Source: an uncultured Thermoplasmata archaeon
Lineage (GTDB): Archaea; Thermoplasmatota; Thermoplasmata; Halarchaeoplasmatales; Halarchaeoplasmataceae
Direction: 5' to 3'
Assembly (NCBI GenBank): GCA_964399335.1
Contig: CAYNQI010000030.1
Span: 1-11,672 of the forward strand
DNA: 11,672 nucleotides
The notes beneath the pieces were generated by a model. That model saw only the letters and a program-made list of their open reading frames with translations. It did not search any database and was not told where the DNA came from. The stretch's first letter is position 1. Every line of letters starts with the position of its first letter. Shown here piece by piece: positions 524-6,144 of this stretch. Both the position numbers and the translations under genes were made by a program.

Positions 524-674
524 ACGATCGGTTTTAGAAATTGTGTGGAGGTTATATGCCTATGTTATGCAACTGACAGGCAAAGATTTAGCTTGTTAAA
601 TCTGCAAAGTACACACCATTTTACTCCTTTCGAGTAAGGCAAAAACCTATAATTTACATAAGTCGCACATAAAA

Positions 675-707
675 TTTATATATTAAATATAACAATTATA
701 GGGTGGT
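675..707 (+). promoter_or_regulatory. Archaeal promoter (TATA box TTTATATA 675-682) and RBS (GGGTGGT 701-707) of the toxin-antitoxin operon; palindrome TATATT-A-AATATA 679-691 is a possible operator
   Basis: The TATA box is preceded by an A-rich BRE-like stretch and lies about 30 nt before ATG 711. The operator role is inferred from typical type II TA autoregulation; AT-rich palindromes arise easily by chance. Confidence 0.5.
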
Positions 708-710
708 AAA

Positions 711-908
711 ATGGCAACAACGATCCAGGTAGATGTGAAAACAAGAGAGAAGCTAAAAAGATTTGGCCATAAAGGGGAGTCCTACGATGATATCATCGAA
801 CGATTGATGAATTATTGCGAAGAAATGAATATAGAAGAGTTGATCGAGGCAAGATGGGAAAGACTTCAAAAAGAAAAAAATGAATACATCCCTTTGGAAG
901 AGATTTAG
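711..908 (+). CDS. Antitoxin, RHH-like DNA-binding protein (archaeal TTIQV...E[ST]YDD[IV]I.RL type), 65 aa
   Basis: N-terminus MATTIQVDVKTREKLKRFGHKGESYDDIIERLM has the strand-helix-helix pattern of small archaeal antitoxins, and the C-terminus is acidic (EYIPLEEI). It has an RBS and sits directly upstream of a RelE-like gene. Confidence 0.8.
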   Translation: MATTIQVDVKTREKLKRFGHKGESYDDIIERLMNYCEEMNIEELIEARWERLQKEKNEYIPLEEI

Positions 909-1163
909 ATGGAAATCTTATTACATCCCCGTGTTCAAAAATATCTTAATGATAATGGGGAAAAAGAAAGACTCGTAAAGCATATTAGAAAATTAGCTAT
1001 CGATCCATATAATCCTAGGAGTGGAGTGGATATAAAAAAATTAAAAGGAAAACGTCATGACATGTATAGATTGAGAGTCGGGAATCATAGGTTCGAATAT
1101 TTTATAGACGAAGAAAAGATCTGGATTGATGATGCTTTTCACAGGGGAAGAGGATACAAATAA
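909..1163 (+). CDS. relE: RelE/ParE-superfamily toxin (putative mRNA interferase), 84 aa
   Basis: Contains IKKLKG...YRLRVGNHRFEY...I..AFHRG, the RelE-type motif set. Its size and position right after a small antitoxin gene fit. Confidence 0.85.
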   Translation: MEILLHPRVQKYLNDNGEKERLVKHIRKLAIDPYNPRSGVDIKKLKGKRHDMYRLRVGNHRFEYFIDEEKIWIDDAFHRGRGYK

Positions 1164-1192
1164 ATAGACTTACTCGAAAAGGCAAATGACGT

Positions 1193-1512
1193 TAAAAATG
1201 TACCATTTTGTAAACGGACTCATCAGAATCCGCAGTGATAACGAGGATCAAGATAAATAAATGAACGGAGTGAATTTATTAGTCGAAAAGCAGACGCTTT
1301 CTAACACCACGTTTAAAATCAGAGATTTCTAAACGGACTCATCAGAAGGTTGGCGCCTTCTAACTATCCGTCAATTATGAAAAAATAATGTGACGGACAC
1401 CGCAGAATGCTATCGCATTCTCCTTGTCCGTAAAAATGTACCATTTTGTAGACGAACTCATCAGAAGGTTGGCGCCTTCTAACTATCCGTCAATTATGAA
1501 CCGGAAAGTAGA
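1193..1512 (-). repeat. tRNA-linked tandem array of ~59-60-bp degenerate, hairpin-forming units (alternating A/B types, 119-bp super-period)
   Basis: Unit starts (+ strand) at 1211 TAAACGGACTCATCAGAA, 1271 (degenerate), 1330 TAAACGGACTCATCAGAA, 1390 GTGACGGACACCGCAGAA and 1449 TAGACGAACTCATCAGAA, then the tRNA end at 1509 TAGACGGAC. 1330-1381 vs 1449-1500 match 50/52; 1193-1228 vs 1431-1466 match 34/36 (offset 238 = 2x119). Confidence 0.9.
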
Positions 1513-1587
1513 CGGACGCGACGGGATTCGAACCCGTGCTGTCTGCCTTAGAAGGGCAGCGCCATGTCCAGGCTAGGCCACGCGCCC
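1513..1587 (-). tRNA. tRNA-Arg (anticodon UCU), intron-less, CCA not encoded
   Basis: Minus strand GGGCGCG-TG-GCCTAGCCTGGACATGGC-G-CTGCC-CT-TCT-AA-GGCAG-ACAGC-ACGGG-TTCGAAT-CCCGT-CGCGTCC-G forms a complete cloverleaf: acceptor GGGCGCG/CGCGTCC, anticodon stem CTGCC/GGCAG, T-loop TTCGAAT. Confidence 0.97.
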
Positions 1588-1652: not shown

Positions 1653-4130
1653 CTACTCTTCCTCGGTATCCTCGACGATCTCTTTCTCCTCTTCCTCACC
1701 GATGACCTTAGTCATGGCGATCAGTTCGTCATCCTCTTTAACTCTCATAGTTTTCACACCCATGGTGTTCCTTCCCTGTATGCTGATATCATCCACAGCA
1801 GTTCTTATGATCATCCCGGTCCTACTCATCAGGAGGATCTCTTCGCCCTCTTCAACAACTCTAGCACATCTGACTTCGCCGGTCCGATCATTTGTCTTCA
1901 TGGTGATCACACCTTTAGCTCCTCGGTGTGTCTTCCTGTACTTTTCGACGGGACACCTCTTACCGTATCCGTTCTCAGTCAATGTCAACAGCATATCATC
2001 GTCATCAACAAGCGTCATACTGACAACTTCGTCCCCATCTCGGAGTTCTGCACCTTTGACACCCATTGTGTACCTTCCAGTAGCTCTTACCTCGCTTTCA
2101 TCGAAACGTACCGCTTGTCCGTGTTTGGTAGCCAGCATGATCTCTTTTTCACCGTTAGATAATTTAGTATCCACGAGTTCATCGTCTTCCATCAACCTGA
2201 TGGCCCATATCCCGGTAACCCTTGGATTACTGTAAGCCGCCAGGGACGTTTTCTTGATCTTACCTTTCTTAGTTGAGAACAACAAGTACTCGTCTTCTGG
2301 GAAATCACTGACGTGTAAAAGATCCTCGACTTTCTCGTCCCTTTCCAACCTTGGCAGCATGTTCACTATAGGTCTACCTTGGGTCCTACGACCCCCCTTC
2401 GGAACCTTATAGGCTTTCAACCAGTAAACCCTACCTTTATTGGTGAAGAACAATAAATAATCGTGGGAATCCACCACGAACATGTCAACAACATGATCTT
2501 CATCCTTGGTATCCATACCTATAAGTCCGACTCCGCCTCTACGCTGTTTACGGTAGGTATCTACAGGTAACCTTTTGATGTAACCACGTCGAGTCAAAGT
2601 GATCACTAATTTCTCTTTTGGAATAAGATCTTCAGTTTCGACCTGCACTGCATCTTTATCGATCTCAGTCCTTCTCTCGTCACCGTACTCCTCGGCAAGT
2701 TCATCCAACTCATCTTTGATGATATCCAAGATCTTCTGTTCATCACTCAATATACTCTTGTATTCCTTGATCTTCTCTTCGATCTCTTCGTACTCCGTCT
2801 GAAGTTTATCACGTTCCAAACCCGTCAATCTCCTCAACCTCATATCCAGGATGGCCTGGGCCTGTCTCTCACTCAACAGGAACTTAGAGACCAGTTTTCT
2901 TTTAGCTTCGGCTTGGTCCTCGGCTCCACGGATTATCTTTATGACTTCATCTAAGTTACTAAGAGCGGTCAACAAACCTTCCAAGATGTGAGCTCTCTCT
3001 TCTGCCTTATCTAGATCGTACTTCGTTCTACGTGTGACTACATCGATTCGATGATCGATATAATGCTGTATAGTCTCTTTTAAAGATAATATCTCAGGTT
3101 CGTCATCAACTAAAGCTAGATTGATGACCCCGAATGTAACCTCCATCTGAGTATGCTTGAACAATTTATTCAAAGCCACTTCTGGGAGGGTTCCTCTTTT
3201 AAGTTCTACAACAACTCTCACACCATCTCTATCTGATTCGTCCCTAAGATCGGAGACTTCATCCAAAGTTTCTCTTTTGACTAGATCAGCTATATTTTCA
3301 ACCAGAGTAGCTTTGTTGACCTGATACGGAATCTCATTGATTATGATACGACTCCTGTTCCCGCCCATATCTTCGATCCTAGCTTTAGCACGGACGGTTA
3401 TCTTACCCCTCCCGGTCTTGTAAGCTTGATAAACTCCTTCGTGACCGTAGATTATACCTCCGGTCGGGAAATCAGGACCAGGTAGTACATCCATAAGATC
3501 CACAACATCGGATCCAGGTTCATCTATCAACATCTTAGTTGCATCAACGAGTTCGTTCAGATTGTGCGGTGGTACGTTCGTGGACATCCCTACTGCGATC
3601 CCGCTTGAACCGTTCAACAACAGATTGGGTAACTTGGAAGGCAGTACAACCGGTTCCTCTAACGAACCGTCGTAATTGTCTCGAAACTCAACAGTTTCTT
3701 TACCGATATCCTCTAGCATCTCCTCTGCTATGGCTTCCATCCGAGCTTCCGTGTAACGCATAGCGGCTGGTTCATCACCATCTAGTGATCCAAAATTACC
3801 CTGCCCATCCACAAGTGGGTAGCGCAAAGAGAAATCCTGAGCCATCCGCACCAACGTGTCGTAAACGGCTTGGTCACCATGTGGATGGTACTTACCGAGC
3901 ACGTCACCGACTACACGGGCGGACTTCTTGTGAGATTTTTTAGAGGACAACCCTTCCTGGTGCATAGAATACAATATCCTTCTATGTACGGGTTTCAAAC
4001 CATCTCTAACGTCAGGAAGTGCCCTACCCACGATCACGCTCATCGCGTAATTTATGTAAGAATTCTTCATCTCCTCTTCGATATTTTTTTCGTAAACTTC
4101 ATCAGCGATACCGTTATCAACATCGACCAT
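1653..4130 (-). CDS. gyrA: DNA gyrase subunit A, 825 aa
   Basis: Motifs [25 protein letters not shown] and AAMRYTE (catalytic Tyr). The GyrA-box QRRGGVG precedes the beta-pinwheel C-terminal repeats, which distinguishes it from ParC. Acidic C-terminal tail. RBS GAGGT overlaps the gyrB stop. Confidence 0.98.
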
Positions 4131-4140
4131 CGTAAAAACC

Positions 4141-6144
<2,004 letters not shown>

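Follow-up and report, generated by a model that had tools for sequence, protein, structure and literature searches.

The DNA stretch analysed here (the window) is the entire contig C30, 11,672 nt long, of a metagenome-assembled genome (MAG) of an uncultured Thermoplasmata archaeon, which is 80% complete and fragmented into 212 contigs. It carries a tRNA-Arg(TCT) gene, located downstream of gyrA at a distance of 65 nt from the gyrA stop codon. The 3' side of this tRNA is occupied by a tandem array of short hairpin units, each ending in a few nucleotides that repeat the end of the tRNA, and a toxin-antitoxin gene pair lies at the far end of the array. The array, its relatives behind other tRNA genes and their possible origin are described below.

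The repeat array behind tRNA-Arg

The acceptor 3' strand of the tRNA-Arg reads CGCGTCC, the discriminator G is located at position 1513 and CCA is not encoded; on its own strand the gene ends in ...GCGTCCG and is followed by TCTA. The array on its 3' side comprises three intact units of 44-60 nt, one split unit and a distal fragment, arranged in a two-type rhythm of 119 nt (Table 1). With at most one mismatch allowed, the motif GAGTCCGT was found on the tRNA strand at the tRNA end (1512-1519) and at 1452-1459, 1393-1400, 1333-1340 and 1214-1221, which corresponds to spacings of 60, 59, 60 and 119 nt from the tRNA end outward. About 0.1 matches of this type are expected by chance on one strand of a stretch of this length. 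The alternation of two unit types is seen in a 96-nt direct repeat (D1; 1326-1421 and 1445-1540, 77% identity, 119-nt spacing), the second copy of which reaches into the tRNA, and in a 36-nt repeat family with three copies spaced by 119 and 119 nt. A covariance model built from units of related genomes (R1) recognised the three proximal units with E values of 1e-11 to 1e-14. Tandem Repeats Finder did not detect the array in the window, because the two unit types are too divergent.

These results bear out most of the initial annotation of the locus, made by a model from the letters and a list of open reading frames, which had reported a repeat array behind tRNA-Arg, an alternation of two unit types as a 119-bp dimer and decay with distance from the tRNA. 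The decay is evident from unit 4, which is split by a 59-nt insert (removal of 1228-1286 restores its hairpin), and from the fragmentary distal copy. The further statement that the tRNA 3' end is repeated at the unit ends holds in so far as the motif recurs, but the sequence common to unit and tRNA in the window is limited to 5-6 nt (GTCCG plus T), and no long att-like core is present.

Table 1. Features of the tRNA-Arg locus in the window
Feature	Position	Strand	Basis or remark
tRNA-Arg(TCT)	1513..1587	-	ARAGORN; Rfam RF00005, 60.9 bits
Remnant of ancestral 3' flank, TCTACTTTCCGGTTCA	1497..1512	-	TTCA marks the fusion with the right half of a palindromic spacer
Unit 1, type A: TAATTG-ACGGAT-AGTT-(AGAAGG CGCCAA CCTTCT)-GATGAG-TTCG	1453..1496	-	R1 match 1451-1496, 47.6 bits
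Unit 2, type B: spacer palindrome TCTACAAAATGGTACATTTTT (T5 run), then ACGGAC-AAGG-(AGAATGC GATA GCATTCT)-GCGGT-GTCCG	1394..1452	-	R1 match 1392-1437, 55.4 bits
Unit 3, type A: spacer TCACATTATTTTTTCATAATTG (T6 run), then the hairpin of unit 1, end GAGTCCG	1334..1393	-	R1 match 1332-1377, 54.5 bits; repeat D1
Unit 4: spacer TTTAGAAATCTCTGATTTTAAA, then hairpin AGAAAGC..GCTTT/../TCT interrupted by a 59-nt insert, end GAGTCCG	1215..1333	-	sequence
Secondary insert F, TCGACTAATAAATTCACTCCGTTCATTTATTTATCTTGATCCTCGTTATCACTGCGGAT, in the 3' arm of the unit 4 hairpin	1228..1286	-	same insert at the same hairpin position in other arrays
Distal fragment: second copy of spacer TTTACAAAATGGTACATTTTTA and a decayed hairpin, into the end of the ParE-like gene	1165..1214	-	repeat family D2, 94% identity to 1431-1466
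DUF7557/VapB-like antitoxin	711-908	+	Pfam
ParE-like toxin	909-1163	+	Pfam
11-nt perfect inverted repeat I1 (TTTCGAGTAAG / CTTACTCGAAA) around the toxin-antitoxin pair	628-638 / 1169-1179		islet 628..1179, at the far array end

Structure, target and turnover of the units

The modules are 51-60 nt in size. Each begins directly after the G equivalent to the discriminator and consists of a T-rich palindromic spacer, such as those of units 2, 3 and 4, followed by a strand-specific bulged hairpin. The hairpin is composed of ACGGAC, 1-5 unpaired nucleotides, a stem of 6-10 bp (for example, AGAATGC-GATA-GCATTCT), 3-6 unpaired nucleotides and GTCCG. Its closing helix is a replica of base pairs 1 to 4 of the acceptor stem (GGGC/GYCC), along with the discriminator, of the tRNA ahead of the unit: the equivalents of C4-G69, G3(A)-U70, G2-C71 and G1-C72 are paired, and the helix extends through the discriminator and 1-2 trailer bases. 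Pairing is also possible between the end of one unit and the beginning of the following one, so that two palindromes with common arms alternate along the array.

The R1 model has 46 positions with 17 pairs and a seed alignment of 46 units, in which 85.4% of cells are paired in the two-helix structure, versus 35-47% in slid controls. Double changes occur at 13 of the 17 pairs, and the observed values were reached by none of 500 shuffles. On the tRNA-sense strand G.U pairs exceed A.C pairs (102 versus 30), although this excess is inflated, and thus partly biased, by the choice of seed units for sense-strand folding quality. The window array itself folds better on the sense strand (-66.1 kcal/mol, z -5.7) than on the antisense strand (-55.6 kcal/mol, z -4.6). 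From the G.U excess and the better folding of the sense strand, the hairpin is predicted to act on the tRNA-sense strand, either as RNA or as single-stranded DNA.

In archaea, transcription ends at oligo-T runs. Runs of five or more T are present on the tRNA strand in 54 of 116 spacers (47%), and runs of five or more A in 13. Units 1 and 2 of the window are followed by a T5 and a T6 run, respectively, and the pre-tRNA is therefore unlikely to include most of the array. Searched against Rfam with E values up to 1, the whole window matched only the tRNA model, and the units matched no family. A hammerhead ribozyme, a C/D box and a K-turn were considered for the motif CUGAUGAG and rejected, since the motif varies between arrays (CUGAUGGG, CUGACGAG and CUGCAGAG in others), the GAAA element and the D box are absent and there is no Rfam match.

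In the genome from which the window derives, R1 matches with E values below 0.01 are confined to four arrays, namely those of the window, C23/C13, C10 and C18. BLAST and a structural scan located hairpin and spacer modules behind tRNA-Ala(TGC) on C23/C13, behind tRNA-Val(GAC) on C10 and at the end of C18, where the tRNA is off-contig; in relatives, arrays of the C18 type are found behind an intron-bearing tRNA-Lys(UUU). The units end in GGGTCCA in the tRNA-Ala array (tRNA-Ala itself ends in TGGGTCCA), in GAGCCCA in the tRNA-Val array (tRNA-Val, TGAGCCCA) and in GAGTCCG in the tRNA-Lys type array on C18 (tRNA-Lys, CGAGTCCG). The spacer type of unit 4 of the window is also present in the tRNA-Ala array on C23.

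Secondary insert F, 57-59 nt long (TCGACTAATAAATTCACTCCGTTCATTTATT..TCCTCGTTATCACTGCGGAT), was also observed in tRNA-Ala arrays on C13 (about 24215-24265) and on contig C5 of the congener G008 (L063), and in the tRNA-Lys type array on C18 (about 19850-19905). It always lies at the same point of the hairpin 3' arm (..TTT^TCT..), in arrays of tRNA-Arg, tRNA-Ala and tRNA-Lys, and looks like a second-order insertion targeting the hairpin units themselves. The distal common segment of the window array was considered as a 3' end of the ParE gene; this assignment was dropped, as the segment is insert F, recurring in the hairpins of other arrays.

The location of the units was surveyed at 60 loci with 142 R1 matches, 118 of them distinct. 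All arrays lie just 3' of a tRNA and in its orientation, with the single exception of the relative G026, in which a 2.2-kb islet is placed between the array and its tRNA-Arg. The tRNAs concerned are those for Arg (TCT, CCT, TCG), Lys (UUU, CTT), Ala (UGC, CGC, GGC), Val and Met, and all of the target tRNA ends inspected have the form G-Y-C-C-R. The unit ends track the tRNA that they follow. Units after tRNA-Arg end in GTCCG in 43 of 53 cases and those after tRNA-Lys in 14 of 16; after tRNA-Ala the end is GTCCA, the final base being A in all 22 units, and after tRNA-Val and tRNA-Met it is GCCCA. The opposing base of the closing helix changes in step, with C-G in Arg arrays and T-A in Ala arrays. 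In the window the unit ends, GAGTCCG or GTGTCCG, are closer to the end of tRNA-Lys than to that of tRNA-Arg (CGCGTCCG).

The order to which this archaeon belongs consists of a single family, and R1 matches 40 of its 43 genomes, including all 23 of high quality. A class-wide sample gave matches in 15 of 15 genomes of the family, in one of three genomes of a sister family and in none of 122 genomes from 27 other families. The match in the sister family (G057) is a true unit behind tRNA-Arg. A 22-nt hairpin pattern was found at 12 loci among 185,579 species genomes, all of them in Thermoplasmata MAGs, several of which, according to their isolate names, originate from salt or soda lakes or from sediment. 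An unrelated, AT-rich metagenome contig (Ga0233412_10129426; L124) contains a repeat of about 134 nt with two GTTA-loop hairpins, one of which equals the unit hairpin AGAAAGCGTTAGCTTTCT. This 1-kb contig yielded no tRNA, and the identity may be due to chance or to a distant relationship.

The orthologous tRNA-Arg locus provides a view of the units over time. The synteny of gyrA and tRNA-Arg(TCT) is kept in 26 of 30 loci of the family, and units are found by R1 behind 23 of these 26 tRNA genes, in ten genera. In the four genomes of the genus, the C-terminal regions of GyrA are 95-97% identical and the upstream spacers about 93% identical as judged by eye; the downstream arrays are non-colinear and differ in the number, type and order of units. 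The modules turn over faster than the neighbouring intergenic DNA. Higher-order repeats of 255 nt are present in the relative G036.

In the relative G013 no unit is present and the tRNA is directly followed by TCTACTTTACGTTTCAACTTA. The same 21-nt flank sits after the last GTCCG of the inserted block in G017 and after one unit in G004, while the window retains its first 16 nt (the remnant in Table 1), of which 14 agree with the flank directly after the unit-free tRNA in G013 and likewise 14 with the flank after the last unit in G017. The position of this flank in G013, G017 and G004 places the entry point of the blocks exactly at the junction of discriminator and old flank. The type-B unit 2 of the window is nearest to a unit of the tRNA-Lys array in G008, with a score of 0.84, versus scores of at most 0.49 for tRNA-Arg units elsewhere. 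Along with the Lys-like ends of the window units, this resemblance points to units that carry their own end and move between arrays with the common GTCCG, and not to a fresh duplication of the local target. Two questions raised in the initial annotation can be answered in the affirmative: units do occur at other tRNA loci of the genome, BLAST having found them behind tRNA-Ala, tRNA-Val and on C18, and their copy number does vary in related MAGs, from differing arrays among congeners to zero units in G013.

Neighbouring modules, islets and integrase elements

The toxin-antitoxin pair of the window is enclosed by the inverted repeat I1; the random chance of an 11-nt inverted repeat in that stretch is roughly 7%. 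In the congener G017, which lacks this islet, an LrgB gene directly follows the tRNA-Arg array. This suggests that the pair is a small mobile cassette that landed at the far end of the array. Elsewhere in the window, 60 nt at 151-210 are identical at 52 of 60 positions to the left-end hairpin region of an IS200/IS605 insertion sequence (IS) with tnpA and tnpB genes on C101. Adjoining this segment is a truncated LrgB frame (215-523), which matches only positions 117-212 of the 214 in the profile. Insertion of the IS has probably interrupted LrgB and led to the break of the contig.

Other types of module were observed at tRNA genes. The arrays of relatives also contain longer modules of about 105-165 nt (E modules) between the units, each terminating with 16-18 nt copied from the tRNA end; in the genome of the window, E modules are found behind tRNA-His, tRNA-Glu, tRNA-Ser, tRNA-Ala and tRNA-Val. 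A search for a viral donor with a 16-mer of the longer E module matched 25 viral contigs, all of them by chance in coding sequence, and this candidate was rejected. A second class of 3' module, about 95-175 nt in size, occurs in the genome of the window behind tRNA-His (C39), tRNA-Ser CGA (C42), tRNA-Glu (C8), tRNA-Ala (C13) and tRNA-Val (C10). In these modules an inverted copy of the tRNA T-arm and 3' end is followed by AAAAC, a hairpin and the last 13-18 nt of the tRNA in direct orientation. Those behind tRNA-His and tRNA-Ser are present as tandem duplicates. The tRNAs concerned have ends other than G-Y-C-C-R.

On the 5' side, one to three modules lie between gyrA and tRNA-Arg in many relatives (L010, L014, L019-L025, L028, L032-L034, L037, L038). 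They comprise a copy of the first ~13 nt of the tRNA (GGGCGCGTGGCCT), two hairpins and a copy of the D-loop region (ATAGCCYGGACAT). Such modules are absent from the window. In G017 the old promoter-proximal flank abuts a truncated copy of the 5' module, as if the module had entered inside the 5' part of the gene and brought a new 5' end.

Larger elements are also associated with these loci. In the relative G007 a gene for a 333-aa tyrosine recombinase (C24, 2584-3585, minus strand; L028) ends exactly at the 3' end of tRNA-Arg, and a matching 17-nt repeat followed by a spacer-type module is found on C56 (L042); the end of the same element also follows the array in G008 (L012). The islet of G026 (C14, about 2160-4340; L076/L011) is 2.2 kb long, encodes a GLUG-repeat surface protein and splits the tRNA-Arg array, with units on both sides.

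Comparison with known elements and origin of the arrays

In the Escherichia coli tyrT-tyrV operon (rtT RNA), each of the distal 178-bp repeats includes the 3' end of the tRNA. A preprint (bioRxiv 10.1101/2024.07.17.603846) mentions the rtT locus. The likeness of these repeats (RF00391) to the units is one of layout only, in that tandem units downstream of a tRNA each end in a copy of its 3' end. The tyrT case is bacterial and restricted to a single locus, its units are longer and its copy measures 19 nt, and it has neither a hairpin module common to different tRNA species nor lineage-wide spread. The RtT covariance model (RF00391) gave no match in the whole window with E values up to 1, and no sequence relationship is indicated.

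Repetitive extragenic palindromic (REP) sequences, bacterial interspersed mosaic elements (BIMEs) and REP doublets forming hairpins (REPINs), which are linked to the REP-associated tyrosine transposase (RAYT) of the Y1 HUH type, are similar in being short imperfect palindromes that fold on one strand and lie just 3' of genes, in alternating-type arrays, with fast turnover and lineage specificity. Unlike them, the units share one orientation, are restricted to the 3' boundaries of tRNA genes and carry a target copy at their end. A cognate RAYT or Y1 transposase does not accompany the units wherever they occur: PF01797 was found in 23 of the 43 genomes and is missing from six high-quality genomes that bear units. 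Inverted neighbours dispersed between genes were not found either, as all R1 matches are tRNA-oriented and located behind tRNAs.

Duplicated att sites of archaeal tyrosine integrases (SSV/pNOB8-type) resemble the arrays in their stacked direct copies of a tRNA 3' end downstream of the gene. The units share just 5-8 nt with the tRNA, in contrast to the 17 nt of the integrase element in G007, and are uniform 51-60-nt hairpins without cargo and with an inverted partner of the tRNA end. An att core typically includes at least 15 nt of the tRNA 3' part, which is the case for the E modules of relatives, none of which occurs in the window, but not for the units.

Integron attC sites and clusters of attC sites lacking integron integrases (CALIN) share with the units imperfect hairpins of about 50-60 nt that are structure-defined, strand-specific and arrayed, with toxin-antitoxin or other small cassettes adjoining. 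The arrays differ from them in being anchored at tRNAs, mostly without a cassette between units, and in the apparent lack of an integron integrase context. The attC core boxes R'' (RYYYAAC) 5' and R' (GTTRRRY) 3' of the hairpin are absent in that arrangement; motifs like GTTAGAA and TTCTGAC are present in the inner stem in reverse order, with R and not Y at the last position (unit alignment A1). The sole PF00589 match in this 80%-complete genome adjoins tRNA-Lys(CTT) on C96. The main text of the report on archaeal integrons (PMC9668308) mentions neither tRNA nor Thermoplasmata.

Miniature inverted-repeat transposable elements are marked by terminal inverted repeats, a target-site duplication and a related autonomous element. 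In these terms the closing helix could be read as terminal inverted repeats of 5-7 bp and GTCCG as the duplication. The GAGTCCG ends, matching tRNA-Lys better than the resident tRNA-Arg, count against a fresh target duplication, and no autonomous relative was found. The t-elements of Haloferax, which are processed by RNase P and tRNase Z (PMC4326828), are likewise non-tRNA elements of a halophilic archaeon with an acceptor-like helix next to genes. The units lack a T-arm or cloverleaf, do not score with the tRNA model and have the discriminator position paired; tRNA-like processing involves an acceptor and T-arm with an unpaired discriminator and trailer, and here the helix continues through the discriminator. 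In summary, the array resembles the tyrT repeats in layout, REP/BIME elements in behaviour and att duplications or attC sites in logic, and lacks the defining features of each. The view of the initial annotation that no named archaeal element matches is shared by literature and library searches, and no published description of such elements was found in the literature searches.

On balance, it is somewhat probable that the array represents lineage-specific hairpin insertion modules, small and non-coding, that target tRNA 3' ends in a family of salt- and soda-lake Thermoplasmata and are amplified in tandem. The anatomy of the units, their exclusive position 3' of tRNA genes, the unit ends that follow the tRNA, the insertion polymorphism, the fast turnover and the lineage restriction are directly shown, whereas active recombination guided by sequence or structure is inferred as the mode of spread. 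Modules would enter directly 3' of the discriminator in the orientation of the tRNA, at acceptor stems beginning with GGGC/GYCC, and would regenerate the target, since each ends in a copy of it (GTCCG here). Tandem arrays could be built and reshuffled by further insertion, unequal crossing-over and exchange between arrays, with distal copies decaying or taking up secondary inserts. The T-run of the spacer may serve as a new terminator for the tRNA and thus render the insertion harmless. Integron attC sites, CTX-phi and the ends of IS200-type elements recombine as folded single strands. The substrate of the units would most likely also be a folded single strand of tRNA sense, acted on by a putative recombinase, because the units mimic the top of the acceptor stem (with G.T opposite position 70 in about half of them) and show a strand bias.

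Several results weigh against this explanation. No mobilising enzyme was found: Y1 transposases (PF01797) have the patchy occurrence described above, and a resident IS200/605 element or RAYT was rejected as the mobiliser, as the sole tnpA-tnpB element of the genome (C101) has unrelated GC-rich end hairpins. Neither a free nor a donor copy was found among 2.9 million viral contigs, where the hairpin pattern had zero matches, or among metagenome contigs apart from two of this lineage; the metagenome scan also returned two unrelated contigs. Simple gene conversion among arrays already in place could account for the exchange of units, with no need for transposition. Units at 23 of 26 orthologous tRNA-Arg loci would also be expected under a selected function, and the excess of G.U pairs is partly a product of seed selection.

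A selected function could be that of an RNA trailer. In this case the units would be transcribed together with the tRNA and work at the RNA level, with the T-runs as terminators. As acceptor-like hairpins they might serve as guides or buffers for RNase Z, RNase P or the CCA-adding enzyme, they might shield the 3' end, or they might be released as small RNAs. The better folding and many G.U pairs of the sense strand agree with such a role, as do the constant orientation, the persistence across ten genera, a closing helix that copies G1-C72 to C4-G69 (with G3.U70 in 21 of 46 seed units) and the 1-3 units ahead of the first run of five or more T in several relatives; the enrichment of T-runs on the sense strand also makes a terminator role of the spacer plausible. 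It is nevertheless unlikely. Given the T5 and T6 runs after units 1 and 2, transcription from the tRNA promoter should not reach most of the array, and such runs are found in nearly half of all spacers. The discriminator-equivalent base is paired within the helix, unlike in a substrate of RNase Z, and the units are ignored by the Rfam tRNA model and every other family. Their number, order and type vary even within the genus, one relative has none, and secondary inserts split them without apparent consequence. For the same reasons, T-runs in 54 of 116 spacers and no Rfam match, the small RNA array processed from the trailer that the initial annotation had offered as one alternative is not supported, although the first unit could still be such an RNA. 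The other alternative offered there, iterative duplication or integration at a tRNA att core, is in keeping with the exact entry after the discriminator, the variation among congeners and the several tRNA species involved, but not with a core of only 5-8 nt or with units that form a discrete family of hairpin modules and not scars of larger elements.

It is distinctly unlikely that the units are passive scars, that is, arm fragments with the crossover core left by successive tyrosine-integrase integrations and imprecise losses at the tRNA 3' end. The recombinase gene abutting tRNA-Arg in G007, with the 17-nt copy AAATCCCGTCGCGTCCG on another contig, the E modules interleaved with units in relatives and the islets at array ends (the toxin-antitoxin pair here, the GLUG adhesin islet in G026) would be explained in this way. 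Random deletion remnants would hardly have a uniform length of 51-60 nt and a conserved hairpin with compensatory changes, however, and identical hairpin and spacer modules are found behind different tRNAs. The short identity between unit and tRNA, the absence of the hairpin pattern from viral contigs and the attR-proximal arm of one integrase element, which was examined and contains no unit-like sequence, also speak against scars. A neutral local tandem duplication or an assembly artefact is very improbable. The MAG is fragmented and arrays are often located at contig ends (C18, C23), and tandem duplication does contribute, as seen from the 119-nt dimer and the 255-nt repeats of G036, but arrays of this architecture were obtained in 40 separately assembled genomes, behind at least 10 tRNA species and with unit ends tracking each tRNA, which already contradicts such an explanation. 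Similar repeats are thus present in relatives; their absence was one of the conditions under which the initial annotation would have reduced the array to a neutral duplication.

A selfish module whose spacer doubles as a tRNA terminator would fit all of the data, and the explanations considered here do not exclude one another. It is improbable, and speculative, that the units are attC-like recombination sites, working as folded single strands that mimic the end of a tRNA acceptor stem, which, with tRNA genes as fixed attI-like platforms, jointly capture and stack small gene islets. If true, this would be an integron-like gene capture in archaea without an integron integrase, with the ParE pair, the GLUG adhesin islets and the integrase elements as cargo.

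The insertion modules proposed here have practical consequences, as their arrays break MAG assemblies and may be mistaken for small-RNA genes or CRISPR-like arrays. The 3' ends of tRNA genes are classic landing sites of viruses, plasmids and islands, and the footprints left there are usually taken as passive scars. Here, throughout one archaeal family, they are occupied by an active-looking population of 50-60-nt hairpin modules. These duplicate the top of the acceptor stem together with the discriminator, restore their own target site and supply a terminator. If the spread of these modules is enzymatic, it would represent an undescribed chemistry of site-specific DNA insertion, guided by the nucleic acid itself or by structural mimicry, and would explain why the flanks of these tRNA genes are hot spots for small gene islets.

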